From an uncultured Bacilli bacterium (GTDB lineage Bacteria > Bacillota_I > Bacilli_A > RF39 > UBA660): a DNA stretch of 64,000 bases. The stretch spans positions 25,964 through 89,963 of the forward strand of contig CANPYM010000002.1 in NCBI GenBank assembly GCA_947588685.1. Reading direction: 5' to 3'. Numbering within the stretch: the first letter of the stretch is position 1; each line of letters opens with the position of its first letter. Positions 3,350 through 29,436 of the stretch are shown piece by piece. The position numbers and the translations under genes are program-made. The notes beneath the pieces were generated by a model. The model made no database searches, was not told the origin of the DNA, and worked only from the letters and a program-made list of their open reading frames with translations.

Positions 3350-3367
3350 CTTAATTGTCAAAAATCA

Positions 3368-3789: not shown

Positions 3790-3794
3790 TTAGT

Positions 3795-4100
3795 ATGATA
3801 AAAGTAGATGTTAAAAAGAAAGATGATGTAGTAAATTACATTAAGATATCAGGGCATTCAGAATATGCGGAAGCTGGTTTTGATATCGTTTGTGCCTCAG
3901 TATCTTCAATAGCGATTACGACAGTTAATGCTTTAGTTAGTATTAATGAGGACTGTCTTGTTTATAGTGAAGGTGAGGGCTTGTTAGAGATAGGTATTTT
4001 AATTCATGATGAAGTTATTGATAAATTAGTCACGAATATGTTAAATCTATTTAAAAACTTATCTCTAGATTATAAAGAATATATAAAACTTAATTATTAA
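3795..4100 (+). CDS. prp: ribosomal-processing cysteine protease Prp (YsxB family)
   Basis: Conserved position between rplU and rpmA. ~100 aa with GHSEYA...DIVCASVS motif. Confidence 0.85.
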
Positions 4101-4114
4101 GGGAGGTGCTCAGG

Positions 4115-4402
4115 ATGAAATTGATGAGATTGAATATCCAATTATTTGCCCACAAAAAAGGTCAAGGTTCAACTAAAAATGGACGTGACTCAATATCTAA
4201 AAGATTAGGAGCAAAAGCTGCTGATGGTGAACATGTATCTGGCGGTTCTATTTTATATCGTCAAAGAGGAACAAAGATTCATCCAGGTGTTAACGTAGGT
4301 ATTGGTTCTGATGATACTTTATACGCTAAAATTAGCGGATATGTAAAATTTGAACGTTTAGGAAAAGATAAAAAACAAGTAAGTATTTATCCTGAAGTAT
4401 AA
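4115..4402 (+). CDS. rpmA: 50S ribosomal protein L27 with cleavable N-terminal extension
   Basis: [11 protein letters not shown]|[15 protein letters not shown]... RBS GGGAGG at 4101-4106. The ORF track begins at GTG 4106; ATG 4115 is preferred. Confidence 0.93.
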
Positions 4403-4427
4403 GACTGATTAATCAGTCTTTTTTTTG
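4403..4427 (+). terminator. rho-independent terminator
   Basis: AGACTGATT-AATCAGTCT hairpin followed by T8. Confidence 0.7.
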
Positions 4428-4442
4428 TAAAAAGAAAAGCTA

Positions 4443-5405
4443 TTAGCTAACTTTTCCTTTTAATACTTTACAAATAGTTTCAATACATTTTTGCTTTTGG
4501 GATAATCTTGGATGTACATAAAGATTTAAGGTTATATCAACGCTAGCATGACCCAATAATTCACTTACGGTTTTATAATCCGTTCCTGCGCTGATACAGT
4601 TAGTTGCAAAAGTATGACGAAGTGTATGAAACTTGAAATGATCTAGACCGATAAAATCAATTAATTTAGAAAAATAGCGACTATAAGAACGGGGTTCGAT
4701 AGGTTTAAGTTTACCAGATATTAGATAGCTATGAAGATTACTTGGTACATATTCTTTTAAAATATTTAAGATATCTTTACTAAGAGGAATATCGCGGTTG
4801 GCATTAATTGTTTTAGGCGAGGTGATGACTAATTTTGATAATGATCTATCTTCATCTTTAATATATATTCGCTGAATTGTTTTATTGATTGATATCGTTC
4901 CTTTTTTAAAATCGACATCTTCCCATTTCAAGGCACATACTTCGCCAATGCGAAGCCCTAAATACAATGATAATAAAATGCCAAGATTGCGATAATTCAT
5001 ATTATCAAGTAAATAATTAGTTAGAGTTACTTGTTCATCATAAGATAATACATATAAACGATTCGCCTGTTTCTTGTTAGGATAGGCGAATGTTAAATCG
5101 ATATAAGAAATGTATTTTTCACTCATCGCTTTTTTAAGGCTACTTTTAATAATGTTGGCAATATCTTTGATGGTCTTTAACGCTAACCCTGTCTTTTTAT
5201 TATCATCGGCTAAAGTTAGTAAAAAATCTTGAATTATTTTATGGGTAATATCTTCCAAATAATATTTTCCTAACATTGGAATAATATGGTTGAAAATATG
5301 GTTTGAGTAATTAGCATAGGTTGATTCTTTGACATAATTTTTCTTATCTTTAAGCCATTCACATATCCAGTTTTGGTAAAGTATTCTTTTTTTAAATATA
5401 ATCAT
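4443..5405 (-). CDS. tyrosine-type site-specific recombinase/integrase
   Basis: C-terminal HTLRHTFATNCISAGTD...LGHASVDITLNLYVHP (R..HxxR..Y catalytic region). Start moved to ATG 5405 (MIIFKK), preceded by AAAGGAGGA. Confidence 0.85.
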   Translation of the reverse strand: MIIFKKRILYQNWICEWLKDKKNYVKESTYANYSNHIFNHIIPMLGKYYLEDITHKIIQDFLLTLADDNKKTGLALKTIKDIANIIKSSLKKAMSEKYISYIDLTFAYPNKKQANRLYVLSYDEQVTLTNYLLDNMNYRNLGILLSLYLGLRIGEVCALKWEDVDFKKGTISINKTIQRIYIKDEDRSLSKLVITSPKTINANRDIPLSKDILNILKEYVPSNLHSYLISGKLKPIEPRSYSRYFSKLIDFIGLDHFKFHTLRHTFATNCISAGTDYKTVSELLGHASVDITLNLYVHPRLSQKQKCIETICKVLKGKVS

Positions 5406-5547
5406 ATTTCCTCCTTTCAAGGAATTTATTATATAAGAAGATTTAAAAGATTGGCGAGAGGAAAAAATTATGACATTTTTTTACAATTTACTTGTTTGCC
5501 AAATTAGAATATGTTAATATAATAATGTATAAGAAAGGAGTAAGATA

Positions 5548-8500
5548 ATGAAGAGATTATTTCGAAGTCTATTAGCTTTAGCGTTGATATTTGGTTTATA
5601 TGTACCACAAGTTTTAGCTTTCCCTCCTTTATTTAATGAACCAATTAGTATTTTAGCGGAAGCTGATAGTTTGCTAAGTACATCTTTAGAACAACCTTCA
5701 TTCGTTGGAACAGGTAACTTGGAACTTGATTTAAAGTTTAGTTTACCAATTAAAAATGTTGCTAATCCTAATATTAAAGTAACTCTTAAAGATAGTTCAA
5801 ATGCGTCTTTTACTATCAATCTAAATGATTATCCAACGATGACACGGGATAATTATACTTTAGGTGATCAAAAGGGCGAGTTTTCTATTCGTAAGATGGA
5901 AGTTGTTACTAAAGAAGACGGCAATATAAGCTATGAAGACGTTAAAAATGGCGTTGATAGTAGCGATGTTAAGTATTATGCGATGACCATTTATGGTTTG
6001 CGCCAAGGAACTTATAGTGTAACTTTATCTGGTAATGGTTATAAAGATTACACGGTTACTGGCATTAAACTAGATGATTACGCTAAACGTGTTACCATGT
6101 CAAATGATCGGGGATTATTTGAAGTGGGGGATGTCAATGGTGATAACGCTGTCGATGAAAAAGATATCGATGGTATTATTGCGCATATCGGTAGTAAAGA
6201 TGCCGCAGATTTAAATAAGTATGATTTAGATCGTGATGGCGAGATTCAAATTAACGATATGGCGATGGCAGCTTCTAGTATCAATGGCGAAGTTGAAAAA
6301 GTATCGATTGAAAATACGATGGCTATTATCAGTGCTGATAGCTTTAGCATTGATGAATCATCAACTTCTATCGATGGCGATATAGCTGATTTATTCACGC
6401 CAGATGGAAGTGTCGGAGTTCACCCAAGTGATACCGAAGCCGAAATATCTGAGGAAAATCCGGCTGTCATTTCCCTTGATATGAAAAAGCCTGTTGAAAT
6501 GGGTGAGATTAGAATTGAGACAGGACACGATAATGTGCCTGAAGAAATGACTGTTATCGTTTTAGATGAAAACGATAAAGAACACGAGTTTAAAGTTGCA
6601 AAACAACAAGTAGAAGCGATAGCGCATAAGTTTACGGATAAGAGTAGCGAAGGTACGATTGTTGTTGACTTAGAAGGTCAAATAGCTGTTAAAAAGGTAA
6701 CAATTAAAATCACGAAATCATCAGGTAAAAACTTAGCGGAAATCGCTGAAGTGGAATTCTTAAACAATGTTAAAGAAGATGTGGCTCCACCTGAAATAAA
6801 TATTCCAAGTGGCTTAAAAGCTAACTTAGGTAGTGAACAAGTAACCCTTACTTGGAATGGTATTCCAAACGTTACGGGATATGAAGTATTATTCCAAACT
6901 TTAGATACTAGTGGTAATGTCACAAAGAATGAAATCTTACAGACAACCTACACGAATTATACAATTGAAGATTTGAAAAATTACAAAGATTATCGCGCTG
7001 CTGTAAGAGGTGTTAATGGCGATTGGAAGGGTGCCTATAGTGCTGAAATAACTTTCCAACCCGAGGCTAGTAGAAAACCTCCAGCACCCGATATGGTTAA
7101 TGTAACACCAACTTTTGCCGGCTTAGATATTAGTTGGAAAGATATGAAAGATACCTTATCCTATAATATCTATTACCGAGCTTTAGGTGCTGAAGAGTTT
7201 GAAGAAATAAGAGAATACAAAGGAACAAGTTATAAACTACGTAACTTACTTCCATCAACGGCTTATGAAGTTTATATTTCTGGTAATAACCCAAATGGTG
7301 AAGGAGCTCGCTCATTAAAAGCTAGTGGCACGACCCTTGCTGAAGGCGCTGCTATTACCCCTAAATATAAATTAATTAATAAGTCTAATGGTGGCGATAT
7401 AACTAGTCATATTAAAGAAGTTGTATCAAGTCTAGGTACGATGTCTAACGGCGATAATACCGCTTTAGTTGATGATGATTTCCATACTTATTGGGAACAC
7501 AAAGATTGGCAAGTAAATGCAAGCGCTAACTATTCTTTTGGAGCACCAATAATTGTTCTAGATCAAGAATATACAATGGACCGTTTTGCTTTAACTATAC
7601 CTGATTCTTACACATTTAGTTATAAGGGTGGTTCTTATGATCCAACTAGTAGAGATTATAACGATGTTAAAGTCTTCTACTGGAGTGGTGATGATGTAAG
7701 ATCAACTCAAAATAGTATAGTGGTTCATGGTAAGCTAGAACTAAAAAAGGATAAGAATAATCGTTCTTATTATGTTTTAAAACTTCAAGAACCAATTAAA
7801 GCTAATGCTGTTCAATTTGGTCTTACTGTTGCTGGTAATACTAAATTAATTCAAATTAGTGAAGTAAAACTATATGAATATGATTCTATTGCTGACGAAG
7901 TTAATGCTTTATTCACGGATGATTTGCATTTAGTTTTAGCTGATGGTGTTAATGAAGCTCGTCTTAAAGCGTTAGAAGAACGTCTTAATACAGTTGATAA
8001 AGAAAGTGGTGAGTATCACCCAGATAAGGATGCTATTCAAGCTGATATTGACTATGCAAGACGTATCTTAAATGATGAAGATTTAAGTAAAGAAATTATT
8101 ACGGTTAACCAAAATATAACCGCTAAAAAACATACTGGCTTTAGTCAACTTAGTGAGTTACAACCATTAGGTATTGTTGCTCGCCCTGGTGAGACGATTA
8201 CCATTTATATGGGAACTGATACGAATGTACATCCACAAGTTGTCTTTACACAGTTCTATGCCGAAGCTGGTGGATGGAGTGTCACTAAAGGAAACCTTAA
8301 TAATGGCGCTAATGTTATTGAAGTACCAAAAGTAAACTCTATGGATGTTGATAAGGGTGGCGCTGTTTATATTAAGTATCCTAATTCAGCACCAACTAAA
8401 GGAACGATTAAGATTAGAGTTAGTGGTGGCGAAAGAATACCAATGCTAGATTTATATAGTAATCTATCTGATGAAGTTGAATCTAAGGCTATTATTAGTT

Positions 8501-10728
8501 CTTATCTAACAGATTTAAATAATTATGTTCAAAAGATTCGGGCAACCGATGGTTTTGATGAAAATCTTAGTGTTATTAACTCAACAGAAATAGGAACTAA
8601 GAATGCGTTATTCTCTGTTCCAGCTACTAAAGTATACGATAGTATTGTAAGTGGTATTGAAGGAGACACAACTGCTCAAATTAATCGTGTTTATAATTCG
8701 TTATTAGCGTTTGAAGAAATGATGACGATTTTCTATAATCATAAAGGTTTATCTTTAACGCCAGAAGAAAGTGTTGATATGGCCCCAGCATCAAGAATTA
8801 ACATTCGGGCAATGCGGATGTTTGATGGCGCATTTATGTATGCATCTGGGGATCACATCGGTATCGGTCAGGCATCAGTGCCTGGTTTAATGCAAGGTAT
8901 ACCAAATCAAGGTACGGGTGCTGATATGACAACAACCGGTTACTTTGGTTGGGGTATCAGCCATGAGATTGGTCACCAAATCAATCAAGGTAATTTAGCT
9001 CATGCTGAAGTTACTAACAATGTTTTTGCTTTACTTGCGCAAACAAGTGATGATAAAACCGCTCCTCGTATCGCTGATCGAATGGACCGCATTTATCAGA
9101 AAGTAACATCTAATACTTTGGGTAAAGGAACAGATGTCTTTGTTACTTTAGCAATGTATTGGCAATTACATTTAGCTTATGATGATGCTTATACTTTCAG
9201 TGATACAAACTCTATCTTTGCTAAAATAAATAAAGAGAGTAGAAGGGTAAATCAAGATGAAACATTAAAGAGTATGAGTAAAGATGAACTTCTTATTGCT
9301 CTTGCTAGTAAGGCATCTGGTTATGACCTTAGAGAATACTATCGTCATTGGGGACTTGCCTCAACAGAAAAAGTTGATAATTATATTGCTGGTCTAAATC
9401 TAAAGACAGAAGAAAGACCAATCTGGTATATCAATGATAATGCTAGAAGATATCGAATGAATGGTGGCGCTAAAACACCAGAGACGACATCAATTGTGGC
9501 TTTCTTATCTGAAGAAGACCCACAAAATAAACGTTATACTTTAACTTTCAATCCAATTGATGGCTCTGATAGTCGTTATATCTTGGGTTATGAAATTAAA
9601 CGTAATGGTGTACCAATTATGTTTACGACGGAAACGTCATTTACAGATGTTATTGGTGCTTTAAATAATCAAGCTCTTACATATGAAGTAACAGCTTATG
9701 ATATGTATTTAAAACCAACTAATACCGTTAAGTTAAAAGAAGTTAAAGTAAGACATGATGGAAGCATTAATAAAGAAGGCTTTACTATCGAGTCTAACTT
9801 CAAACATAATGGTGAAGTTGTAAGCTATGAAGATGAAAGTTTTGATAGCAAGAAATTAAGTGTTAATAATCTATTAGATGGAAAAAATAGTACCTTCATT
9901 GGTGATACGAGAATTTCTGATAAAGAAGTTGAAACAGTTGATAAGGGCGATGCTAGTATCATTATTGATTTAAATAGTGCAATGTCCGTATCAGGTATTG
10001 CTTATACGGCTGGTACTGATGAAAATGGCCTTTTAGCTAACACTATTTCTAAGTATGCTGTTTATGTAAGTAAAGATCGTAATACTTGGGATAAAGTAAA
10101 AGAAGGTACATTTGATTTTGAAAAATCTAAAGATTATAAAAATACCATTTATTTTGACAAAATAGGTACAACTGGTGGTAACCAATTATGGACTTATAAT
10201 GATATATCCTATATTAAGATTGTATCTGTCGGAAATACAAATGGTATAAGTGGTGCGGAAATAGATGTTATTGCTCCTCCAGGCGATAATGTTGAATTAG
10301 ATAATGTTGGTAAATTATCCAAAGATTATAAATATCAAGGCGAAGATGGAAGTGAGAAAACAATCGAAGCTGGCTCAATTGTCTTCACAGGTAATTATCG
10401 TGGTAATCCAACTTTCAACGTTATGTTGATGGTTGATGCTACCAATGCTGAAAAAGTCTTTGATGGTGAAAACTTCTTATTTGCTAAATTAACAGACGAT
10501 GGTACTGTAAGTGAAACTTATGATGGTACTTGGTTCTATGTTGTTAGTAAAGAAACTTATGAAGATATGTGTAAGGGTAGTGTTAGAGCCGAATTATATC
10601 GGGTAAATGATCCACATACTAATGATGGTGAACGCCTTACAAGTACATCACTTTCCCTAAGTGATTTAGCAGCATATGAAGAACTTCCAGATTTAAATAT
10701 TGTTGACTCTACTAAGGAGGTTTCATAG
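5548..10728 (+). CDS. large secreted multidomain protein: type-I dockerin + FN3 repeats + M60-like (enhancin-like) zinc metallopeptidase + discoidin/CBM32-like C-terminus
   Basis: Signal peptide MKRLFRSLLALALIFGLYVPQVLA. Duplicated Ca-loop DVNGDNAVDEKD / DLDRDGEIQIND (~6127-6275). HEIGHQINQGNLAHAE = HExxHx10E (8961-8975). Confidence 0.8.
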   Translation: MKRLFRSLLALALIFGLYVPQVLAFPPLFNEPISILAEADSLLSTSLEQPSFVGTGNLELDLKFSLPIKNVANPNIKVTLKDSSNASFTINLNDYPTMTRDNYTLGDQKGEFSIRKMEVVTKEDGNISYEDVKNGVDSSDVKYYAMTIYGLRQGTYSVTLSGNGYKDYTVTGIKLDDYAKRVTMSNDRGLFEVGDVNGDNAVDEKDIDGIIAHIGSKDAADLNKYDLDRDGEIQINDMAMAASSINGEVEKVSIENTMAIISADSFSIDESSTSIDGDIADLFTPDGSVGVHPSDTEAEISEENPAVISLDMKKPVEMGEIRIETGHDNVPEEMTVIVLDENDKEHEFKVAKQQVEAIAHKFTDKSSEGTIVVDLEGQIAVKKVTIKITKSSGKNLAEIAEVEFLNNVKEDVAPPEINIPSGLKANLGSEQVTLTWNGIPNVTGYEVLFQTLDTSGNVTKNEILQTTYTNYTIEDLKNYKDYRAAVRGVNGDWKGAYSAEITFQPEASRKPPAPDMVNVTPTFAGLDISWKDMKDTLSYNIYYRALGAEEFEEIREYKGTSYKLRNLLPSTAYEVYISGNNPNGEGARSLKASGTTLAEGAAITPKYKLINKSNGGDITSHIKEVVSSLGTMSNGDNTALVDDDFHTYWEHKDWQVNASANYSFGAPIIVLDQEYTMDRFALTIPDSYTFSYKGGSYDPTSRDYNDVKVFYWSGDDVRSTQNSIVVHGKLELKKDKNNRSYYVLKLQEPIKANAVQFGLTVAGNTKLIQISEVKLYEYDSIADEVNALFTDDLHLVLADGVNEARLKALEERLNTVDKESGEYHPDKDAIQADIDYARRILNDEDLSKEIITVNQNITAKKHTGFSQLSELQPLGIVARPGETITIYMGTDTNVHPQVVFTQFYAEAGGWSVTKGNLNNGANVIEVPKVNSMDVDKGGAVYIKYPNSAPTKGTIKIRVSGGERIPMLDLYSNLSDEVESKAIISSYLTDLNNYVQKIRATDGFDENLSVINSTEIGTKNALFSVPATKVYDSIVSGIEGDTTAQINRVYNSLLAFEEMMTIFYNHKGLSLTPEESVDMAPASRINIRAMRMFDGAFMYASGDHIGIGQASVPGLMQGIPNQGTGADMTTTGYFGWGISHEIGHQINQGNLAHAEVTNNVFALLAQTSDDKTAPRIADRMDRIYQKVTSNTLGKGTDVFVTLAMYWQLHLAYDDAYTFSDTNSIFAKINKESRRVNQDETLKSMSKDELLIALASKASGYDLREYYRHWGLASTEKVDNYIAGLNLKTEERPIWYINDNARRYRMNGGAKTPETTSIVAFLSEEDPQNKRYTLTFNPIDGSDSRYILGYEIKRNGVPIMFTTETSFTDVIGALNNQALTYEVTAYDMYLKPTNTVKLKEVKVRHDGSINKEGFTIESNFKHNGEVVSYEDESFDSKKLSVNNLLDGKNSTFIGDTRISDKEVETVDKGDASIIIDLNSAMSVSGIAYTAGTDENGLLANTISKYAVYVSKDRNTWDKVKEGTFDFEKSKDYKNTIYFDKIGTTGGNQLWTYNDISYIKIVSVGNTNGISGAEIDVIAPPGDNVELDNVGKLSKDYKYQGEDGSEKTIEAGSIVFTGNYRGNPTFNVMLMVDATNAEKVFDGENFLFAKLTDDGTVSETYDGTWFYVVSKETYEDMCKGSVRAELYRVNDPHTNDGERLTSTSLSLSDLAAYEELPDLNIVDSTKEVS

Positions 10729-15333: not shown

Positions 15334-15896
15334 TGACGATTCGATTAGCTAGTGAACTACAAATCGATAGTGTGGTTGATGGAACTGGTGTTAGGGCTGT
15401 TATCTGGACACAAGGTTGTGCTCATAACTGTCCTGGATGCCATAATCCACAGACCCATAGTTTCGATGATGGCTTTTTAAAAGATGTCGATGAGTTGATT
15501 GAAGAGATTCAAACTATGGAAGGTCAAACAGGTATAACCTTTAGTGGTGGCGATCCCATGTATCAACCTGAGGCGTGTGCGGTTATTGCGAAGGCCGCTC
15601 ATAAATGTAAGTTGGACGTATGGTGTTATACCGGATTTACGTTTGAAGAAGTACTTAAAATGCGTGATACAAATAAAGCTGTTAAAGACTTCTTAAATGA
15701 GATTGATGTTCTTGTTGATGGAAGATTTATAATGGCTAAGCGTAGTTATAATATCAAGTTTAGAGGTTCGACGAATCAAAGAATTATTGATGTTAAAAAG
15801 AGTTTAAAACAAAAAAAAGTTGTTATAGCTTTATCAGATGATGTTGAAGTAACCCATAACTATGGCAGATATGATGATAAAGGACTATACATTTAA
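15333..15896 (+). CDS. nrdG: anaerobic ribonucleotide reductase activating protein (radical SAM)
   Basis: CAHNCPGC cysteine cluster; ~185 aa. Confidence 0.88.
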   Translation: MTIRLASELQIDSVVDGTGVRAVIWTQGCAHNCPGCHNPQTHSFDDGFLKDVDELIEEIQTMEGQTGITFSGGDPMYQPEACAVIAKAAHKCKLDVWCYTGFTFEEVLKMRDTNKAVKDFLNEIDVLVDGRFIMAKRSYNIKFRGSTNQRIIDVKKSLKQKKVVIALSDDVEVTHNYGRYDDKGLYI

Positions 15897-15965
15897 AGCT
15901 ACTATTTAGTAGCTTTTTTGTATAATTTAAAATTAACCTCATATAATTAAAATGAGAGGTTATAT

Positions 15966-16517: not shown

Positions 16518-17456
16518 ATGAATGATATCAAAGTCGTTTTTATGGGAACACCTGATTTTAGCGTTCCTGTATTAGAAATGTTAATTGCTAATTATAATGT
16601 TGTTTTAGTCGTTACTAATCCTGATAAACCGGTCGGAAGAGGGGGAAAAGTAGCTTTCTCACCTGTCAAGGAAGTAGCGTTAAAAAATAATATTCCTCTT
16701 TTTCAACCTGAAAAAATTAGAGTTGATTATGAAGACGTTTTAAAGATGGAACCTGATCTTATCGTTACTTGTGCTTATGGACAGATTATTCCAAAAGAGG
16801 TTTTGGATTATCCCCGTTTGGGATGTGTAAATGTTCACGCCTCTTTACTTCCTAAGTATCGTGGTGGGGCACCTATTCATCACGCTATTATTAATGGCGA
16901 TAAAAAAACGGGTATAACCATTATGTATACGGATGTAGGTATGGATAGTGGCGATATTATTGCGCAAAAAGAAATACCTATTGAAAATGATGATACGGCT
17001 GAAACCTTATTTTCTAAATTGTCATTATTAGGAAGTGACTTCTTAAAAGAAGTTTTACCATCAATTATTAATGGTACTAACAATAGGATTAAGCAAAATG
17101 AAGAAGATGTTACTATCGCTCATAATATTAGTCCTACTGATGAAATAATTGATTTTACGAAAACAAGAGAAGAAGTTTATAATCAAATAAGGGGGCTTAA
17201 TAGTTGGCCTGGTGCGTACACATATCTAGATGGCAAAAGACTAAAGGTTTGGATGTCAAAAATAGGTGCTGAAAAAGATTATCAAGATATGGGTGTTATT
17301 ACAAACATATATAAAGATGGAGTGGGTGTAAGTACGAAAGATGGGGAGATCATTTTAACAGAACTACAGATAGAAGGTAAGAAAAAAATGACCGCCCATG
17401 ATTATTTGAATGGCCTTACGAATCGTGATGAATTAGTTGGAAAGAAATTGGGGTAG
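16518..17456 (+). CDS. fmt: methionyl-tRNA formyltransferase
   Basis: KVVFMGTPDFSVPVLEML...VVTNPDKPVGRG; HxSLLPKYRG motif. Confidence 0.95.
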   Translation: MNDIKVVFMGTPDFSVPVLEMLIANYNVVLVVTNPDKPVGRGGKVAFSPVKEVALKNNIPLFQPEKIRVDYEDVLKMEPDLIVTCAYGQIIPKEVLDYPRLGCVNVHASLLPKYRGGAPIHHAIINGDKKTGITIMYTDVGMDSGDIIAQKEIPIENDDTAETLFSKLSLLGSDFLKEVLPSIINGTNNRIKQNEEDVTIAHNISPTDEIIDFTKTREEVYNQIRGLNSWPGAYTYLDGKRLKVWMSKIGAEKDYQDMGVITNIYKDGVGVSTKDGEIILTELQIEGKKKMTAHDYLNGLTNRDELVGKKLG

Positions 17457-17462: not shown

Positions 17463-18311
17463 GTGAAAAAGTTTTGGGAAATTGTTAAAAATGCTTTTAA
17501 GGACAAGCGTAAACGAGCTGTAATAAGCCTTGGATTTTGGATTATTTTCTTTATTGCCGTTTTTGTTATGATTGGAGGTCCTGTTAATATTGATTATGAG
17601 TATCAGAAAAGGACATCATCATCAAATTCTAATGTAAGTAAACCGGTTACTAAAAATACTCTTGAAAATTTTAAGAAGGTCGACAATACAGAGTTTACTT
17701 ATGATGTCACTATTACGGAATATAATAAAACTTTAAATTATAAAGTTGAAGGTACATACTATGATAAAGATTATTATTTTACATTAGATGGTGTATCTTA
17801 TTATCTAAAGGATGATATTATCTATCTTGTCGATGATGTAAACCATAATTTGGTAACTTTTCGTCCTGATGCAAACCATCTTTTTAATCGGATGGATGGC
17901 AAGTTAATGCAAATGCTTAGAATTAGTGAGTTATATACAACCCTTACTTCTAGTGAAGAGCAAACAAAAACTACTTATAAGGATAATACGACGGTAACAA
18001 GTTTTGCTTATAAGGTTTATGATGGAAGAAGTATTGCTATTAAAATGACTGAAAAAGATAACAAGCTAGGCGCACTTAGCCTTGATTATACTAATTATGC
18101 TGTACCTAAAGCCCAATTATTTCGGGTTGATATAACATATAATAATATGGATAATATTGCTGATTATAATAAGGATTATCACACATATACCTATGATGCG
18201 GTCATAACACCTGATACGACAAGTAATCCATCTAGTGATTTAGGTAATGTAACCAGCAATCCCAATTCTATGACTAATAGTAATTTAACGCCCATAAAGG
18301 AAGGTGTTTAA
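17463..18311 (+). CDS. hypothetical membrane-anchored protein
   Basis: GTG start, N-terminal TM (ISLGFWIIFFIAVFVMIGG). Stop overlaps the next gene's start. Confidence 0.45.
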   Translation: MKKFWEIVKNAFKDKRKRAVISLGFWIIFFIAVFVMIGGPVNIDYEYQKRTSSSNSNVSKPVTKNTLENFKKVDNTEFTYDVTITEYNKTLNYKVEGTYYDKDYYFTLDGVSYYLKDDIIYLVDDVNHNLVTFRPDANHLFNRMDGKLMQMLRISELYTTLTSSEEQTKTTYKDNTTVTSFAYKVYDGRSIAIKMTEKDNKLGALSLDYTNYAVPKAQLFRVDITYNNMDNIADYNKDYHTYTYDAVITPDTTSNPSSDLGNVTSNPNSMTNSNLTPIKEGV

Positions 18312-19675
18312 TGATAAATATTAAATCTGACTCAAGAAAGATTCAAAAAGGGGATACCTTTATCGCTTTAAGAGGAATTGCGAGCGATGGTCATGATTAT
18401 ATTGAAAAAGCCATATCAAATGGGGCTTCTAAGATTGTCGCTGAAGAAGGTAGCTATAGTGTTGAAACAGAAATTGTATCAGATACGCGGGCTTATTTAA
18501 ATAAATATTTAGAGGAACATTATCATTATTTAATTGATGAGATGACCCTTATTGGCGTGACCGGCACGAATGGCAAAACTACTAGTTGTTATTTAACTTA
18601 TCAAGCTTTAAATAAATTAGGTTATAAATGTGCTTATATTGGAACAATCGGTTTTTATTTAGATGGTAAAGTTAAAGATTTACCTAATACTAATTGTGAT
18701 ATATGTGATACTTATGAAATGTTATATGAAGCTTATGAAAAGGGATATAGATATGTTGCTTTAGAAATTAGTAGTCAAGGATTATCTTATGGCCGAGCTG
18801 AAACCCTTTTATTTGACTATGCTGTTTTTACAAACTTAACAAGAGACCACTTAGATTATCATAAGACGATGGAAAACTATGCCTTGGCTAAACAGAAATT
18901 ATTTCATCAGTTAAAACCTAATGGCATCGGTATTATCAATACGGATGATGCGTATGCTTCATACTATAAAATTGGTAATTATGTAACCTACGGCTTTAAT
19001 GGTGGCGATTATACCGTTACGGATTATCATTTGAACGCAGATAGTCTAACCTTTAAAATTAATAGTGGGGATACTTTAGAAGCTAATCTTATTGGTAAAT
19101 ATAATATTTACAATCTTACAGTAGCTTATATTTTATTAGATAAGATAGGTATAACAAGTAACCAAATTAAAGAAGTATTTAAAAGTTTAGTTCCACCTAA
19201 TGGTCGCACAGACATTATTAAATATGGCACCAATACAATCATTATTGATTATGCTCATACACCTGATGCGATGGAAAACTTATTTTCGGCTATTAAAGAT
19301 ATAAGGTATCATCATCTATATATCGTCTTCGGCTGTACTGGAGATCGTGATCGTGAAAAAAGACCAATGATGACTAAACTTGCTCTTGATATGGCTGATT
19401 ATACTTTTATTACTAGCGATGATCTACACAATGAGGATTTCTCACAAATTATTGACGATATGTTAAAAGAAAATACGAAGACTAATTATAAGGTTATTGA
19501 AGATCGTTATGAAGCTATTTTAAAAGCGATGTCTTTACTTAAAGAGCATGATTTATTACTTATTTTAGGTAAAGGTCACGAGGAATATATTATTGTTAAA
19601 GATAAGAAAATTCCTCATAATGATCATAAAGCTGTTCTAGAGATTATCAAGGAACATAAGCATATTAATGTTTAG
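18311..19675 (+). CDS. Mur ligase family protein, MurE paralog with non-canonical specificity motif (DDLH in place of DNPR)
   Basis: DSRKIQKGDTFIALRG N-terminus, GVTGTNGKTT P-loop, ..ITSDDLHNEDF at 19418-19429. Confidence 0.75.
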   Translation: MINIKSDSRKIQKGDTFIALRGIASDGHDYIEKAISNGASKIVAEEGSYSVETEIVSDTRAYLNKYLEEHYHYLIDEMTLIGVTGTNGKTTSCYLTYQALNKLGYKCAYIGTIGFYLDGKVKDLPNTNCDICDTYEMLYEAYEKGYRYVALEISSQGLSYGRAETLLFDYAVFTNLTRDHLDYHKTMENYALAKQKLFHQLKPNGIGIINTDDAYASYYKIGNYVTYGFNGGDYTVTDYHLNADSLTFKINSGDTLEANLIGKYNIYNLTVAYILLDKIGITSNQIKEVFKSLVPPNGRTDIIKYGTNTIIIDYAHTPDAMENLFSAIKDIRYHHLYIVFGCTGDRDREKRPMMTKLALDMADYTFITSDDLHNEDFSQIIDDMLKENTKTNYKVIEDRYEAILKAMSLLKEHDLLLILGKGHEEYIIVKDKKIPHNDHKAVLEIIKEHKHINV

Positions 19676-19727
19676 GTAAAAAAACACTTTTGGATATTTG
19701 TCATAAAATATACTGAGGTGTTTTTTT

Positions 19728-21023
19728 ATGTTACAATCAGATTCCCGGAAAGTCAAAGATGGCGATACTTTTATTGCCCTCAAGGGGTATAAGGAAGATG
19801 GCCATAAATATATTTTAGACGCTATTAATAATGGCGCCAAAAAAGTTATTGCGGAACGTGGTAAATATGATGTTGAAACGCTAATTGTTGATGACACTAA
19901 TGAATATTTATATAAATATTTTAAAATAAATAATATTGATATTAAATTAATCGGTGTGACTGGTACGAATGGTAAGACAACAACGTGTTATTTATTGTAT
20001 CAATTATTAAATGGACTAGGCTGTAAATGTGCCTACATTGGAACGATTGGTTATATTGTTGATGATGTTGTAACGTCCCTTGATAATACCACACCAGGTA
20101 GTTTAGAATTATATAATTTATTAGAAGATAGCTACAACCATAACTGTGAATATGTCGTGATGGAAGTAAGTAGTCAAGCTCTTGATCAAAAAAGAGTTGA
20201 CTATTTAGAGTTTGATGCCGCTATTTTTACTAATCTAACGAGAGATCACCTAGATTATCATAAGACATTAGAAAATTATATTGAAGCTAAAAGGAAATTA
20301 TTTTATCTATTAAAAGATGATGGTATTTCTTTAATCAATAATGATGATCCGTATGCTGATAATTTTAAAATAAAAAATTATAAAACGTATGGATTTACTG
20401 ATAGTGATTATACTATTGATGATGAGAATGTTATCAATTCCCATCCTTATGATATCCCTTTAATTGGTAAGTATAATAAATATAATGTTCTAGCAGCCAT
20501 CAGCCTTTTATATGAATTAGGATATCAATATGATGATATTAAGGAACTTGTTCAAAACTTAAAAGAACCAAGTGGTCGGATGGAAGTTATCAATTATAAA
20601 ACGAATAGGATTATTATCGATTACGCCCATACACCTGATGCTTTACAGAATGTTATCAATACCTCTTTAGAACTTACTGATGGACACGTTTATGTCATTA
20701 TTGGTTGTGGTGGCAATAGGGATAAAGGTAAAAGAAAAATGATGGGATTAATCGCTACGGATATGGCTTATTACACAATCTTTACAAGTGATAATCCTAG
20801 AGATGAAGATCCCTTAGATATCATTAAAGATATGACTTCTAATCTCGATAAAGATAACTATCAAATTGAAGTAAATCGTGAAAATGCGATTAAAAAGGGT
20901 ATACAATTACTTAATAATAATGATATACTATTGGTGCTGGGAAAAGGCCACGAAAAATATCAAATTATTGGTAACGAACGCTTACCATTCGATGATAAAC
21001 AAATTGTATTAGATAATATTTAG
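19728..21023 (+). CDS. murE: UDP-N-acetylmuramoyl-L-alanyl-D-glutamate--2,6-diaminopimelate ligase
   Basis: DSRKVKDGDTFIALKG, GVTGTNGKTTT, DNPR motif at 20790-20801 (meso-DAP type). Confidence 0.85.
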   Translation: MLQSDSRKVKDGDTFIALKGYKEDGHKYILDAINNGAKKVIAERGKYDVETLIVDDTNEYLYKYFKINNIDIKLIGVTGTNGKTTTCYLLYQLLNGLGCKCAYIGTIGYIVDDVVTSLDNTTPGSLELYNLLEDSYNHNCEYVVMEVSSQALDQKRVDYLEFDAAIFTNLTRDHLDYHKTLENYIEAKRKLFYLLKDDGISLINNDDPYADNFKIKNYKTYGFTDSDYTIDDENVINSHPYDIPLIGKYNKYNVLAAISLLYELGYQYDDIKELVQNLKEPSGRMEVINYKTNRIIIDYAHTPDALQNVINTSLELTDGHVYVIIGCGGNRDKGKRKMMGLIATDMAYYTIFTSDNPRDEDPLDIIKDMTSNLDKDNYQIEVNRENAIKKGIQLLNNNDILLVLGKGHEKYQIIGNERLPFDDKQIVLDNI

Positions 21024-21034: not shown

Positions 21035-22027
21035 ATGTTAGTTTTAGCCAAAGCTGTCCTTTCGATGATGATTGGATTTATCATATCTGTTATCCTAGGG
21101 GCTATTTTAGTACCAATTCTAAAAAAAATTAATGTTAAACAAAAAATAAGTACTTATCTTTTAAAAAGACATCATGATAAAGAGGGTACACCGACAATGG
21201 GCGGACTCATCTTTATTATTCCAACGGTTGTATCGACATTTATTTTACTTTTTATGGGTAAAATTGAGATGTCTCACAACTTAGCAATTGTTCTTTTCGT
21301 CTTTATTTCATATGCTGTTTTAGGATTTATTGATGATTATTTGATTATCAAGCGTGGTAATAACTTAGGTCTAACGGAGTTTCAAAAACTCTTTGGACAA
21401 ATTGTTATCGCTTTAGTGTTTTTCTACATCTTTATGAAATCAGGGGCGACACCAACCATCGATATAACAAGTTTGGGTATTACCATTAATATGGGCTGGT
21501 TATACGGCGTCTTCTTATTATTTGTCTTAGTAGCTAGTAGTAATGCCGTTAATATAACCGATGGCTTAGACGGCTTAGCTGGTGGTCTATCCTTAATTGC
21601 TTTTCTAACTTTAGGACTTATCAGTTGGAATTCAAGAGGTATAGCTGGTAGTAGTGATATTGCTATTTTCTGTTTTATCCTTTTTGGATCTTTACTAGGA
21701 TTCCTTTTATTTAATACTTATCCTGCTAAAGTTATTATGGGTGACACGGGATCGTTATCTTTGGGAGCTACTTTAGCTAGTGTGGCTTTAATTACTAAAC
21801 ATGAACTAACATTTATTGTTATTATGGGTGTCTTTATTTTTGAAACACTAGTTTGTATTATTCAAATTGTCAGTATGGTTTGGTTCCATCATAAAGTATT
21901 CTTGATGACACCATTCCATCACCATCTTGAAAAACTAGGTTGGGCTGAACCGGATATTGTTAAATTATTCTGGGTCATTGGTCTAATTCTTAGTATGGGC
22001 GCTATTATCTTTGGCGTTTGGATTTAA
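21035..22027 (+). CDS. mraY: phospho-N-acetylmuramoyl-pentapeptide transferase
   Basis: Polytopic membrane protein with MGDTGSLSLGA motif. Confidence 0.95.
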   Translation: MLVLAKAVLSMMIGFIISVILGAILVPILKKINVKQKISTYLLKRHHDKEGTPTMGGLIFIIPTVVSTFILLFMGKIEMSHNLAIVLFVFISYAVLGFIDDYLIIKRGNNLGLTEFQKLFGQIVIALVFFYIFMKSGATPTIDITSLGITINMGWLYGVFLLFVLVASSNAVNITDGLDGLAGGLSLIAFLTLGLISWNSRGIAGSSDIAIFCFILFGSLLGFLLFNTYPAKVIMGDTGSLSLGATLASVALITKHELTFIVIMGVFIFETLVCIIQIVSMVWFHHKVFLMTPFHHHLEKLGWAEPDIVKLFWVIGLILSMGAIIFGVWI

Positions 22028-25994: not shown

Positions 25995-26215
25995 AATAAT
26001 CACATAGCGATGAAGAAGAGTAGTAATAATAAAGCATTATCTAGAGAAAAAGTGGTCGGTGTAAACTTTTAATGTGATATTATGAACTTACTTTGGAGCC
26101 TTTTATATGATAAGTATAAAACGTCTGTCTGCGTTAAAGATTTAAGAGCATAATTAAAGTATTATGAAGTAGGGTGGTACCGCGCTCGGGCGTCCCTACA
26201 CATAATACTTTTTTG
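25995..26215 (+). promoter_or_regulatory. T-box riboswitch leader, Leu specifier (CUU)
   Basis: AGUAGGGUGGUACCGCG T-box sequence at 26168-26185. Terminator stem GTAGGG...CCCTAC + T-run ending ~26215. AGAGA box at 26043. Candidate specifier AACUUA at 26085-26090. UGGU matches tRNA-Leu discriminator A. Confidence 0.75.
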
Positions 26216-26592: not shown

Positions 26593-29436
26593 ATGTATAA
26601 TTTTAGTGTTATTGAAAAGAAATGGCAAAAAAAATGGTTGGATGAAAAGTGTTTTAATGTTAAAGTTGATCCAAGTAAAGAAAAGTTTTATATGCTTGTT
26701 GAGTTTCCTTATCCATCAGGTGTTGGCTTACATGTTGGACACGCTAGAGTATATACGGCATCTGATGTGCAAGCACGTTATCGAAAAGCTTTAGGATATA
26801 ATGTTTTATTCCCAATGGGTTGGGATGCCTTTGGAGCGCCAGCTGAACAATATGCGATTCAAAATCATATTCATCCTAAGGAAGCTGTTAATGAAAATAT
26901 CAAAGTTTTTAAAGGCCAAATGCAATCACTTGGTTTAGCTATTGATTGGTCTAGAGAATTTTCAACTACCGATCCTGAATATTATCGTTTAACGCAATGG
27001 CAATTTTTACAATTTTATAAAGCAGGTCTTGCTTATAAAGCCGAAAAAGAAATTAACTGGTGTCCAAAGTGTAAGACTGGTTTATCTAATGAAGATGCCC
27101 AAGGTGGTGTTTGTGAACGATGTGGTTCGAAGACGACCAAGAAGTTAAAAAATCAATGGGTTTTAAAGATGAGTGCATACGCTGATAAACTTATTGATGG
27201 TTTGGACGATACGGAGTTTTTGGATAAAGTTAAAATAGCGCAAATAAACTGGATTGGTAAAAGTATTGGGGCTTCTATTAACTTTAAATTAAAAGATACC
27301 GATGATTATCTTGAAGTCTTTACAACTAGAGCTGATACTTTATATGGTGTCACCTTTATGGTTGTAAGTCCTGAACACCCTTATCTTGAAAAGTATAAGG
27401 ATAAGATTCACAACTTAAAAGAATTACAAGCTTATCAAGAAGCCGCTCGTCATAAAAGTGATATTGAAAGAACGGATGCAACCCGTGAAAAAACAGGTAT
27501 TTGTATTGATGGCTTGACGGCTATTAATCCTATTAATAATGAAGAAATACCAATTTGGGTAAGTGATTATGTTTTAGCAGGATATGGAACGGGTGCTATA
27601 ATGGCGGTTCCTGCTCACGATGAAAGAGATTATGCTTTCGCTAAGAAGTTTAATATTCCAATCAGACAAGTTATCATTCCTGTTTATGAAGGGGATGACG
27701 CACCACGTCCTGATAAAGAAGAAACAAAACGTGAAGTTGTCGTCTTAATGGTAAAACATCCAACGGAAGATAAATATCTATGTGTTAAAAATTTAAAATT
27801 AGGTTGGAAGAGCCTTCTTATGGGTGGCATTGAAGAGGGTGAAACACCAGAAGAAGCCGCTAAAAGAGAATTAAGAGAAGAATCAGGATATATTAATTTT
27901 GACCATGATTGGACTTTTGACTTTATGTTTAGAGAAAAGTTCTATGCTGCTCATAAAGATGTTAATCGTAATATTACTAACCACATTATTGTTGGACACT
28001 TGTCAACTTTAACGCAAGGTGAGATTAGTGAGGAAGAAAAAAATACCCAAGAAGCATTCTGGGTTAGTGCTGATGAATTAATGGATACCTTAGACTTTAC
28101 AACCCATAAGAAAGTTGTCAGTGACTACTTTAATGGTGAGAATGCCTATGTTGGCGATGGTGAGATGGTTAATTCTGATATCTTAAATGATATTGATAAT
28201 AAAAAAGATAGTATCGACAAAATGATTAACTATCTAGAGAGTAAAGGTATTGGTAAAAAGACGACTAATTATCGTTTACAAGATTGGATTTTCTCACGTC
28301 AACGTTTCTGGGGTGAGCCAATTCCAATGGTTAATTGTCCTAAATGTGGATGGGTACCAGTTAAAGAAGAAGATTTACCGGTCGTTTTACCAGATGTTAG
28401 TGCTTATGAACCAACCGAGACGGGGGAAAGCCCACTTGCTAATATTAAAGAATGGGTTAAGACAACTTGTCCAAAATGTGGTGGCGAAGCCGAAAGAGAA
28501 ACCGACACGATGCCAAACTGGGCTGGTTCTAGTTGGTATTGGTTAAGATATATGGATCCTCATAGCGATAAAATAGCTAGTGATGAAGCTCTAAATTATT
28601 GGGGTAAAGTTGATCTATATGATGGTGGTATGGAACATGCGACAAGACATTTACTATATGCTAGGTTTTGGAACATCTTCTTACACGAACAAGGCTTAGT
28701 TCCTAATAGTGAGCCATTCTTAAAACGTATCAGCCATGGTATGATTTTAGGTGAAGGCGGCGAGAAGATGAGTAAGAGTAAAGGTAATGTCGTTAATCCT
28801 AATGATATGATTAGGGATTATGGAGCCGATGCCTTAAGAACATATGAGATGTTTATTGGTGATTACTCTAAAGATGCGGCTTGGAGTGAGAATGGCTTAA
28901 AGGGCTGTAAAAAGTTCTTAGACCGGATATGGAAATTACAAGATAAATTAAATAATGAAGAAGGATATACGAAAGCCTTAGAAACGATAATTCATAAAAC
29001 AATTAAAAAGGTAACTTTAGATATTGCTAATTTGGATTATAATACAGCCGTATCAGCATTGATGATTTTACTTAATGAAACGGATAAATGTGAGAGTATT
29101 ACCAAAAGTGATTATCGAACTATCTTAGCTCTTTTAAATCCTTTTGCCCCACATATCACGGAAGAATTAAATGAGATATGTGGCCTAGGAGAACCATTCT
29201 ATAATAGTAGTTGGCCTACTTATGATGAAGCTAAGACGAATGATGCTAGTTATGAAATGGTTGTTCAAGTCAATGGTAAAGTAAGAGGTAAGATTGAAGT
29301 TTCAACGGATACAACCGATGAAGAAATGAAGTCTTTAGCGCAAGATATTGATAATGTTAAAGTTCATCTTGAAGGTAAAGAAATTGTTAAGATTATCGTT
29401 GTTCCTAAAAAACTTGTTAATATTGTTGTCAAATAA
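26593..29436 (+). CDS. leuS: leucine--tRNA ligase with ~150-aa Nudix hydrolase domain insertion
   Basis: HIGH-region P.PSG.GLHVGHA, KMSKS. Insertion at ~27675-28135 carries the Nudix box GGIEEGETPEEAAKRELREESGY (27823-27891). Confidence 0.93.
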   Translation: MYNFSVIEKKWQKKWLDEKCFNVKVDPSKEKFYMLVEFPYPSGVGLHVGHARVYTASDVQARYRKALGYNVLFPMGWDAFGAPAEQYAIQNHIHPKEAVNENIKVFKGQMQSLGLAIDWSREFSTTDPEYYRLTQWQFLQFYKAGLAYKAEKEINWCPKCKTGLSNEDAQGGVCERCGSKTTKKLKNQWVLKMSAYADKLIDGLDDTEFLDKVKIAQINWIGKSIGASINFKLKDTDDYLEVFTTRADTLYGVTFMVVSPEHPYLEKYKDKIHNLKELQAYQEAARHKSDIERTDATREKTGICIDGLTAINPINNEEIPIWVSDYVLAGYGTGAIMAVPAHDERDYAFAKKFNIPIRQVIIPVYEGDDAPRPDKEETKREVVVLMVKHPTEDKYLCVKNLKLGWKSLLMGGIEEGETPEEAAKRELREESGYINFDHDWTFDFMFREKFYAAHKDVNRNITNHIIVGHLSTLTQGEISEEEKNTQEAFWVSADELMDTLDFTTHKKVVSDYFNGENAYVGDGEMVNSDILNDIDNKKDSIDKMINYLESKGIGKKTTNYRLQDWIFSRQRFWGEPIPMVNCPKCGWVPVKEEDLPVVLPDVSAYEPTETGESPLANIKEWVKTTCPKCGGEAERETDTMPNWAGSSWYWLRYMDPHSDKIASDEALNYWGKVDLYDGGMEHATRHLLYARFWNIFLHEQGLVPNSEPFLKRISHGMILGEGGEKMSKSKGNVVNPNDMIRDYGADALRTYEMFIGDYSKDAAWSENGLKGCKKFLDRIWKLQDKLNNEEGYTKALETIIHKTIKKVTLDIANLDYNTAVSALMILLNETDKCESITKSDYRTILALLNPFAPHITEELNEICGLGEPFYNSSWPTYDEAKTNDASYEMVVQVNGKVRGKIEVSTDTTDEEMKSLAQDIDNVKVHLEGKEIVKIIVVPKKLVNIVVK

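Follow-up and report, generated by a model that had tools for sequence, protein, structure and literature searches.

We have identified here two adjacent, paralogous murE genes in an uncultured Bacilli lineage of the gut, within a 64-kb stretch of DNA to which we refer in its entirety as the window. The pair descends from one old duplication and has been conserved since. Whilst the second copy, M2, has the features of a canonical meso-DAP-type ligase, the first copy, M1, combines an intact catalytic core with defined substitutions in the pocket for the amino acid side chain. The sequences incline us, by a modest degree, to the view that M1 joins a cationic diamino acid without a distal carboxylate, most likely L-Lys, and that M2 adds meso-DAP.

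A tandem pair of MurE paralogs upstream of mraY

The sequence-only reading of this DNA had placed tandem MurE paralogs of 454 and 431 residues upstream of mraY, and both open reading frames lie exactly where it put them, with mraY as the next gene (Table 1). The two proteins align by BLASTP with 50% identity over 443 residues (E = 6e-145). They share the MurE N-terminal pattern DSRK..GDTFIAL.G and the P-loop that had been read from the letters, and both lack the ~25 N-terminal residues of E. coli MurE. All three Mur ligase domains (PF01225, PF08245 and PF02875) are found in each copy, and each scores above the cutoff of the MurE subfamily model TIGR01085 (M1 424 bits, M2 455 bits, cutoff 257) and of the DAP-type equivalog model NF001126 (445.5 and 495.9 bits, cutoff 373). 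With the Firmicutes Lys-type model NF010628 the score of M1 is 252 bits, far below the cutoff of 536, and M1 falls outside that lineage. Such scores are to be expected if M1 was recently derived from the DAP type, but they leave the assignment of lysine resting on a few residues. M1 is likewise below the cutoffs for MurF (TIGR01143, 138 bits against 288.6) and for the MurT models (49 bits against 800), and a GatD-like partner is absent next door. The AlphaFold2 (AF2) model of M1 (pLDDT 91) superposes on product-bound MurE, with TMq values of 0.90 to 1e8c and 0.92 to 4c13, compared with best values of 0.71 for MurF and 0.64 for MurC.

The genes around the pair have the appearance of an operon. 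The order fmt, membrane protein, M1 is kept in eight loci (L001-L004, L008, L019, L084 and L086), and the Pfam domain Glycos_transf_4 is present on a gene of L086 that is near-identical to the mraY of the window. The membrane protein found no match in an NCBIfam search. Its TAA stop codon shares the sequence TAATG with the ATG of M1. No terminator-like site occurs across M1, M2 and mraY, the closest one upstream of the operon genes being at 15895-15916, and M1 and M2 are probably co-transcribed. The genes found between or next to M1 and M2 in the loci (MutY, VanY, a radical SAM protein, a family-less HExxH protein, a DHH phosphoesterase, PGK and ZnuABC) include no consistent partner and offer no clue to the substrate. 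FemAB, ATP-grasp and racemase genes were not seen among them. Nor is a substrate indicated by regulatory RNA: the leaders of M1 and M2, both in the window and in 11 loci, contain no riboswitch or T-box. The window does encode D-Ala-D-Ala carboxypeptidases of the VanY and PBP5 types, from which ordinary pentapeptide stems would be expected.

Table 1. Positions of the paired murE genes, their diagnostic motifs and the adjoining genes in the window
Feature	Position	Strand	Basis or remark
fmt, upstream gene of likely operon	16518..17456	+	
282-aa membrane protein without family, upstream gene of likely operon	17463..18311	+	
M1 ribosome-binding site GGAAGG	18299..18304	+	direct sequence reading
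M1, accessory MurE paralog, 454 aa, altered third-residue pocket	18311..19675	+	ORF, Pfam, TIGR01085, AF2
M1 P-loop GTNGKTT	18563..18583	+	invariant in M1 and M2 clades
M1 GCTGDRD loop	19331..19351	+	T343 (19337-19339) for canonical G386; R346 (= E. coli R389) kept
M1 DDLH codons (D370-D371-L372-H373)	19418..19429	+	alignments; = E. coli D413-N414-P415-R416
M2 ribosome-binding site GAGGTG, in 52-nt M1-M2 spacer	19715..19720	+	
M2, canonical meso-DAP-type MurE, 431 aa	19728..21023	+	NF001126, DNPR, G at 386 position
M2 DNPR codons (D355-N-P-R358)	20790..20801	+	invariant in 21/21 M2 clade members
mraY, next peptidoglycan pathway cluster gene	21035..22027	+	ORF; homologs follow DNPR copy in 20 related loci

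Conserved substitutions in the side-chain pocket

The DNPR motif characteristic of meso-DAP ligases is present in M2, in the context FTSDNPRDED already pointed out in the sequence-only reading, and is missing from M1. The corresponding DDLH of M1 is homologous to the specificity loop, matching DNPR column for column: ITSDDLHNED aligns with FTSDNPRDED without gaps, and DDLH falls on residues 413-416 of E. coli MurE. Sequencing error does not explain this motif, since the M1 protein is identical on three independent ENA contigs and the 120 best database clusters, at 59-98% identity, have DD[LP]H without exception. The further claim that the motif matches neither the DAP nor the Lys signature is literally true of DDLH but holds less well for the family, in which 7 of 25 orthologous loci have DDPH. 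This variant differs only at its last position from the Lys-type consensus D(D/N)P(N/A) that Boniface et al. 2006 reportedly gave.

Only three positions differ invariantly between the M1 clade and 73 DNPR relatives, namely G386T, N414D and R416H in E. coli numbering. The Thr at 386 is invariant in the M1 clade and the Gly in the 73 relatives, and neither D371 nor H373 varies across the 25 members of the clade or the 120 best database clusters. We assessed the pocket formed by T343, D371 and H373 by covariation over 208 sequences, and found that all 41 of those without R416 are also without G386. N414 and R416 hydrogen bond the distal carboxyl of meso-A2pm and have been proposed as the discriminators between DAP and Lys (PMC3681970; PMC3829189). 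In the Lys-specific MurE of S. aureus, which lacks the Arg, Asp406 and Glu460 hold the epsilon-amino group and the pocket is net negative (PMC3829189). M1 keeps the equivalents of these two acids (D370 and E424, both invariant), has H373 in place of the Arg and an extra acidic residue in D371, and its pocket charge is shifted by about -2. These substitutions are those expected of a Lys-type pocket.

The other active-site residues that we checked are unaltered. Invariant in all 25 M1 sequences are the P-loop, E182, S184, R192, D209/H210, K224 and R341 (E. coli numbering) together with DYAH, R389, D413 and GKGHE/E468, and the catalytic set (P-loop, Mg-binding Glu, the His of DH(L)D, carbamylated Lys, R389 and E468) is invariant in all 21 M2 sequences too. 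The carbamylated lysine, Lys-219 in S. aureus, is K194 in M1 (E. coli K224). Neither copy varies at N156, T157, S184, R192 or R389, or in the N-terminal UDP-binding domain.

The M1/M2 pair is found in ~25 related species of uncultured gut Bacilli, whose closest single-copy relatives are of RF39 type. These bacteria have small genomes and live in the guts of humans, mice, rabbits and ruminants. In the phylogeny, the 25 loci with DD[LP]H form the sister clade of the DNPR copies next to mraY (21 loci) from the same MAGs, and both are nested within the RF39-type single-copy DNPR MurE proteins and within DAP-type MurE. The M1 and M2 subtrees mirror each other, implying one old duplication. A DNPR MurE lies within ~3 kb of M1 in 20 of the 25 M1 loci, and in relatives the M2-type copy always adjoins mraY. 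The two clades are similarly conserved, with mean identities of 56% (M1) and 57% (M2) and with 98 and 104 invariant columns, respectively. M1 is under strong purifying selection, with a dN/dS of 0.036 against a 96%-identical relative, compared with 0.079 for M2 and 0.013-0.058 for mraY, fmt, leuS, GH31 and pyk. These observations support the view that the DDLH change is conserved and selected rather than the product of drift. All related clusters are of uncultured origin, and so no known wall chemotype can be attached to the DD[LP]H motif. Our search of the literature on MurE motifs, paired MurE proteins and ornithine specificity found neither DD[LP]H enzymes nor this pair described.

Candidate substrates of M1

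From these features we infer both the substrate of M1 and an acceptor that M1 and M2 would share. The duplication of murE would have taken place in an ancestor of these uncultured gut Bacilli, and the side-chain pocket of the M1 copy would have been rebuilt, with the Asn and Arg for the DAP distal carboxylate becoming Asp and His, the neighboring Gly becoming Thr, and the Asp and Glu that grip the distal amino group being retained. M1 would activate the same D-Glu gamma-carboxylate as an acyl phosphate and then join to it a positively charged diamino acid, of which L-lysine is the most likely, with L-ornithine or D-lysine as possible alternatives. The cell would thereby gain either a second way of making the tripeptide precursor, one that does not depend on DAP, or a mixed wall. 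It is the loss of two DAP-recognizing residues from M1 that points to a different wall building block, probably lysine. A counterpoint is that the His and Thr of M1 differ from the residues of known Lys-type enzymes, as exemplified by the DNPA motif and Ala380 of S. aureus MurE.

Lysine may also be too narrow a choice in view of more distant accessory copies, which keep the catalytic core but have loops reading DNYY, NHLY, VHLY, DCLN, DHTY and others. The combinations of residue 386 with the 413-416 loop include T/DDLH, T/DDPH, R/DNYY, R/NHLY, R/DCLN, T/DHTY and P/DNAE, among others, and such strong variation would fit a family exploring several substrates. Two divergent accessory copies that we looked up are again each near a DNPR copy and mraY, and the 979-residue protein P0242 is a natural fusion of a DNPR MurE to an accessory-type (P/DNAE) MurE. 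The accessory MurE could be a diversifying 'specificity cassette' that adds partly non-canonical residues or amines beside DAP, so that the residue added by M1 would be none of Lys, Orn and DAP. We regard this as a minority possibility deserving some weight.

The sequence-only reading had suggested that M1 adds a different third-position residue or builds a side branch. Both ideas are compatible with our data. The third-residue option is favored because only the side-chain pocket has changed, the residues checked for contact with UDP-MurNAc-dipeptide and ATP being invariant in both copies. As a side-branch or modification ligase M1 would act on the D-Glu alpha-carboxyl (as in type-B walls) or on the distal carboxyl of DAP in the tripeptide, adding an amino acid or polyamine. 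The proximity of a canonical DNPR MurE, both to M1 in most loci and to the two divergent copies looked up, would suit such a role, as would an accessory pocket that varies across lineages in the way a decoration might, an acidic M1 pocket that would also fit a diamine, and the P0242 fusion, which suggests that both MurE types share one pathway. We nevertheless consider a side-branch ligase unlikely given the unchanged acceptor-side residues (N156, T157, S184, R192, R389 and the UDP-binding domain), the superposition of the M1 model on closed MurE, and the low MurT score together with the lack of an adjacent GatD-like partner. Weakly in the same direction, the accessory-side MurE of L025 and L050 is the sole MurE in a partial genome stretch and lies directly before mraY, as though no other copy were needed.

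M1 might instead be an isozyme for meso-DAP, or for LL-DAP or amidated DAP, with the motif merely tuning affinity or regulation. M1 does exceed the DAP-type equivalog cutoff and retains R389, D413 and E468, and DAP amidation in the lineage is hinted at by an asnB-type amidotransferase gene that overlaps M1 in L024, precedes the single DNPR murE in L028, L032 and L069, and lies 1.8-4.4 kb upstream in L035, L039 and L071. In S. aureus, moreover, specificity does not depend on the motif alone: the A409R substitution did not confer use of DAP (PMC3829189). This reading nonetheless appears rather improbable to us, since both distal-carboxylate ligands are replaced, one of them by an Asp of like charge to the carboxylate, and the replacements are invariant in >140 sequences. 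A redundant copy would not be expected to fix such substitutions for so long at the dN/dS of M1. Against the amidated-DAP variant in particular, we know of no free amidated DAP as a metabolite.

Less probable again is an uncharged or unusual third residue, such as homoserine, alanine, lanthionine or a hydroxylated diamino acid. No position of peptidoglycan is more variable than the third, the T343/H373 pair is absent from known Lys-type enzymes, and loops of related accessory copies are rich in aromatic residues. The invariance of the amino-holding acids D370 and E424, with D371 as a third acid, argues instead for a cationic side chain.

That M1 takes the place of MurF, adding D-Ala-D-Ala, or that it lacks catalytic activity like the MurE-like proteins of plant plastids, is highly improbable: murF is missing from the window and from within 6-10 kb of the pair in ~30 loci, the pre-mraY gene elsewhere is often murF (as in L072, L075 and L079), and plant MurE-like proteins are non-enzymatic paralogs, but M1 is below the MurF cutoff, has a TMq of about 0.70 to MurF against 0.90-0.92 to MurE, and has all its catalytic residues intact. 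A database search with MurF of the sister lineage as query returned proteins of the sister lineage only.

Significance and comparison with known systems

The third residue of the stem peptide sets peptidoglycan cross-linking and host sensing, with NOD1 sensing DAP-type but not Lys-type fragments. If M1 adds lysine, these organisms could make a wall without DAP or mix chemotypes, with a bearing on their auxotrophies, on culturing attempts, on susceptibility to antibiotics and lysozyme, and on innate immune signaling. Because annotation models pass both M1 and M2 as DAP ligases, a second specificity would be invisible in genome surveys. For RF39 and related orders the only wall that such surveys predict is 'meso-DAP-type', and it comes with gaps in the supply of precursors (PMC10868615); the supplements of that study contain no per-gene data for murE or murF. 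Were the accessory copies to form a specificity cassette, a frozen core with repeatedly rebuilt pocket loops would allow abundant gut commensals to mix or switch their wall chemotypes. The T/D/H triad and the 386-416 covariation would in addition provide a compact, testable rule for engineering MurE specificity.

M1 has the fold, the three domains and the catalytic residues of the meso-DAP MurE enzymes (EC 6.3.2.13; E. coli 1E8C, M. tuberculosis 2WTZ) and belongs with M2 to the same sequence family. It departs from them in lacking the distal-carboxylate ligands N414 and R416 and in having Thr for G386, whereas M2 retains DNPR and G386. MurT offers a parallel, as a Mur ligase copy that was recruited to decoration of the stem peptide: together with GatD it amidates the D-Glu alpha-carboxyl of lipid II, MurT activating that carboxyl. 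M1 differs in keeping the MurE N-terminal domain, in having no GatD-like neighbor and in its score with the MurT models.

Lysinibacillus (Bacillus) sphaericus, according to classical biochemistry attributed to Tipper and co-workers, adds L-Lys in its vegetative wall and meso-DAP in its spore cortex. As we propose for M1 and M2, this single organism possesses one third-position ligase of the Lys type and another of the DAP type. Those of L. sphaericus are split by life stage, whereas the M1 and M2 genes are adjacent and probably co-transcribed. We rejected a sporulation-linked use of this kind, since the scanned ORFs of the window include no dedicated sporulation genes, the only related hit being a PP2C-type phosphatase that weakly matches a SpoIIE domain.

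The T. maritima MurE (4BUB), which accepts DAP in vitro, resembles M1 in having Asp at motif position 2 and in using a DAP-like scaffold for lysine. It is, to our knowledge, the only MurE of its genome. Its motif is DDPR and it incorporates both L- and D-Lys (PMC9434261). It keeps the Arg and G386, whereas in M1 these are His and Thr, and a DNPR copy is present alongside. The S. aureus Lys ligase (EC 6.3.2.7; 4C12/4C13) shares with M1 the absence of Arg at motif position 4, an acidic pocket with the Asp406/Glu460 pair and a residue other than Gly at the E. coli 386 position, and its structure 4c13 gives the best TM-score for the M1 model. The motifs are distinct (DDLH or DDPH with Thr343 in M1, DNPA with Ala380 in S. 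aureus), and M1 is of other descent, having arisen from a DAP-type enzyme inside its own lineage.

The tandem MurE genes and their surroundings

The two tandem MurE-type ligases that the sequence-only reading placed at 18311-21023, ahead of mraY, are present, with ORFs, domain content and scores against the MurE subfamily model TIGR01085 in agreement. Both the first, accessory paralog (M1) and the second, canonical one (M2) contain three Mur ligase domains and exceed the cutoffs of TIGR01085 (257 bits; M1 424, M2 455) and of the DAP-type equivalog model NF001126 (373 bits; M1 445, M2 496), and both fall far below the respective cutoffs of the MurF, MurD, MurC and MurT models; annotation models pass the two alike as DAP ligases. 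They share 50% identity (E = 6e-145). The DNPR motif reported for the second ligase is confirmed (FTSDNPRDED), as is DDLH at the equivalent position of the first: ITSDDLHNED aligns with the M2 segment without gaps, and its DDLH falls on the DNPR motif of E. coli MurE, residues 413-416. Relative to E. coli and S. aureus MurE, M1, M2 and the single-copy MurE found in related MAGs (starts at 18311 and 19728 in the window and 6001 in locus L038) begin ~25 residues late, so that the initial portion of the N-terminal domain is missing; for M1 an upstream in-frame start is impossible.

M1 has the ribosome-binding site GGAAGG, its ATG overlapping the stop of the upstream ORF (TAATG), and the site of M2 (GAGGTG) lies inside a 52-nt spacer. 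No terminator-like site was found from fmt through the gene for a 282-aa membrane protein, M1 and M2 to mraY, and no riboswitch or T-box was found ahead of M1 and M2. The 282-aa protein, whose gene keeps its place between fmt and M1, combines an N-terminal membrane helix with a Ser/Thr/Asn-rich tail; it returned no family match and evolves fast, with a rough dN/dS of ~0.33 from two copies unequal in length and compared without alignment.

Elsewhere in the window, the 947-aa leucyl-tRNA synthetase carries a NUDIX hydrolase domain inserted at residues 381-510, directly after the editing domain, an architecture also seen in two relatives. A 1726-aa surface protein combines fn3, M60/enhancin-like peptidase and F5/8 type C domains, which makes it a candidate enzyme for the breakdown of mucin or glycoproteins. 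A tyrosine integrase adjoins an L21 leader and four small ORFs without family matches, and the region 683-5420 may mark the boundary of an integrated element.

Positions of the features discussed, in the window unless a relative's locus (L) is named
Feature	Position	Strand	Remark
M1, 454 aa	18311-19675	+	ORF
M2, 431 aa	19728-21023	+	ORF adjacent to M1
mraY	21035-22027	+	ORF, next after M2
DDLH motif (M1)	19418-19429	+	coordinates from sequence
DNPR motif (M2)	20790-20801	+	coordinates from sequence
282-aa membrane protein	17463-18311	+	
Nearest upstream terminator-like site	15895-15916		
Four small ORFs	683-3349		
L21 leader	3414-3481		
Tyrosine integrase	4443-5420	-	
1726-aa surface protein	5548-10728	+	
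Leu-type T-box leader	26001-26200		5' of leucyl-tRNA synthetase
Leucyl-tRNA synthetase	26593-29436	+	
Same architecture in relatives	L084 19802-21365; L086 18282-21125		
Gene cluster	32113-36329	+	958-aa CotH kinase-like protein with lamin-tail domains, VTC-domain protein, DUF4956 protein
VanY-type and PBP5/S11-type D-Ala-D-Ala carboxypeptidases	51864-52820 and 52928-54091	- and +	divergent pair
SH3_3 protein	54145-54831		after the carboxypeptidase pair
Glutamine-dependent asparagine synthase (AsnB type)	L024 4158-6008; L028 2433-4256; L032 3316-5136; L069 4129-5943		
HEMGH protein	L014 4769-5815; L018 7408-8475; L020 7456-8460		
Amidoligase_2 (PF12224) gene and two unknown genes	L090 646-1638		just 5' of an R/DNYY accessory MurE

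Constraint on M1 and its altered pocket

M1 is predicted, from its sequence and structural model, to be a functional MurE-type Mur ligase. It is about as conserved as M2, with a mean within-clade identity of 56% (M2 57%) and 98 invariant columns (M2 104). A comparison of the window with the close relative L086 gives dN/dS values of 0.036 (M1) and 0.079 (M2), alongside 0.013 (mraY), 0.032 (fmt) and 0.027 (leuS). The P-loop, E182, S184, R192, D209/H210, the carbamylated lysine K224, R341, DYAH, R389, D413 and GKGHE/E468 do not vary among the 25 M1 sequences. The AlphaFold model of M1 is confident (pLDDT 91, pTM 0.85) and superposes best on product-bound MurE (TMq 0.90 to 1e8c and 0.92 to 4c13), the match to MurF being ~0.70.

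Only three positions are both invariant in M1 and unlike all 73 DNPR relatives: the canonical Gly, Asn and Arg at E. coli positions 386, 414 and 416 are replaced by Thr343, Asp371 and His373, respectively. At position 415, 18 members of the M1 clade have Leu and 7 have Pro; among the best 120 database clusters, 114 have DDLH and 6 DDPH, and all 120 have GCTG. N414 and R416 are, in canonical enzymes, the hydrogen-bonding partners of the meso-DAP distal carboxylate, which is the proposed basis of DAP/Lys discrimination (PMC3681970; PMC3829189). In S. aureus MurE, the sequence of which we checked against 4c12, the Arg is missing, the pocket is net negative and the lysine epsilon-amino group is bound by Asp406 and Glu460 (PMC3829189); the equivalents of both acids are retained in M1 (D370, E424), and the residue at position 386 is Ala in the S. 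aureus enzyme, whose gene is lytic when expressed in E. coli. The MurE of T. maritima accepts L-lysine and D-lysine (PMC9434261) and has the motif DDPR. Positions 386 and 416 covary: all 41 sequences without Arg416 also lack Gly386, which is present in 160 of the 167 with Arg416, in a set of 208 sequences that are phylogenetically non-independent, though they include at least 10 distinct combinations.

Distribution and history of the pair

When one genome was scanned for each species, the pair turned up in MAGs of uncultured gut bacteria; these carry the labels Bacilli, Tenericutes, Mollicutes or Erysipelotrichaceae and stem from samples of rabbit, human, mouse and ruminant origin. The DD[LP]H copy occurs in 25 loci and the DNPR copy in 21, nearly always immediately 5' of mraY, the two being adjacent or less than 3 kb apart in most loci. 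A near-identical relative of the window (GCA_947589735.1, contig CANQCR010000002.1) has M1 at 96% nucleotide identity. More distant relatives have a single DNPR MurE, including Candidatus Coprovivens (L039), a genus placed in order RF39, family CAG-1000. Neighbour-joining places the DD[LP]H clade as sister to the clade that the DNPR copies next to mraY form in these genomes; the two subtrees have matching groupings, and both are nested within single-copy DNPR enzymes. This is the pattern expected from sequence if one old duplication was followed by co-inheritance, although the tree is distance-based, without bootstrap, and the order of its deeper branches should be taken as provisional. The pattern is not the one that transfer from a Lys-type Firmicute would leave, which is consistent with the low score of M1 against the Lys-type model NF010628 (252 against a cutoff of 536).

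An exhaustive search of representatives revealed more divergent accessory-side proteins (47-54% identity to M1) that keep the catalytic core and have quite different pocket loops, written as residue 386/residues 413-416: T/DDVH, R/DCLN, R/DNYY, R/NHLY, R/VHLY, T/DHTY, A/DDPG, R/DNPN and G/EDQR. DDPH is found as well in further MurE branches whose residue 386 is Pro or Ala (database proteins P0247, P0284, P0296), and P0247 (L088) and P0244 (L090) are each paired with a G/DNPR MurE near mraY. In P0242, a 979-aa protein of an unrelated lineage, a DNPR MurE is fused to a second MurE with P/DNAE; like the other divergent proteins it comes from an uncultured source. Both its units are complete (GAGGNKD/DNPR, then GAPGNRD/DNAE); the protein, from an 11.7-kb JGI metagenome contig, has ~35% identity to M1 and may be either a genuine fusion or an artefact of gene calling. 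These cases suggest that a canonical plus an accessory MurE is a recurring arrangement in which the accessory pocket is evolutionarily plastic. In three related MAGs a 334-355-aa protein with a HEMGH (HExxH) zinc-peptidase motif and no Pfam match lies between the accessory and canonical MurE.

Proposed reaction and relation to known ligases

We propose that M2 would add meso-DAP, and that M1 would make the same acyl phosphate and then take an amino acid with a terminal amino group on its side chain and no distal carboxylate. L-lysine, whose chain length equals that of DAP, would be the simplest candidate; L-ornithine or D-lysine is possible. The recurring arrangement and the plasticity of the accessory pocket are the main reason why we place the lysine assignment no higher. 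Ordinary pentapeptide stems are expected, since genes for VanY-type and PBP5-type D-Ala-D-Ala carboxypeptidases lie in the window and a complete peptidoglycan pathway is reported for four RFN20 and RF39 genomes (PMC7301438). In L021 a VanY gene sits between the two MurE copies.

The presence of a DNPR copy alongside, and the plasticity of the accessory pocket, would also fit a ligase that builds a side-branch or decoration; the unchanged acceptor-side residues and the absence of MurT/GatD-like features argue against this. A redundant DAP isozyme is disfavoured because precisely the carboxylate ligands have been exchanged and then frozen. A related DAP-amide idea is kept alive by an asnB-type amidotransferase gene near murE copies, which overlaps M1 in L024, lies directly 5' of a single DNPR murE in L028, L032 and L069, and is 1.8-4.4 kb upstream in L035, L039 and L071; it may encode a DAP-amidating enzyme of the AsnB1/LtsA kind instead of a housekeeping AsnB. 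Replacement of MurF, or a non-catalytic role, is unlikely given the MurF model score, the poorer structural match to MurF than to MurE and the invariant catalytic residues, which together with the low dN/dS also argue against a pseudogene.

A survey of RF39 and related orders predicted a DAP-type wall with precursor steps missing (PMC10868615); a lysine-adding M1 could ease DAP dependence, a link that we infer. The question bears on abundant uncultured gut bacteria and on a wall feature sensed by the host.

M2 is an ordinary DAP-type MurE. M1 resembles Lys-type MurE in its predicted action but lies outside the Firmicutes Lys-type family; judged by its sequence, it is a lineage-specific derivative of the DAP-type enzyme with the signature T/DD[LP]H, of which we found no description in the searchable literature. 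Separate Lys-adding and DAP-adding enzymes in one organism reportedly have a precedent in classical work on Bacillus sphaericus.
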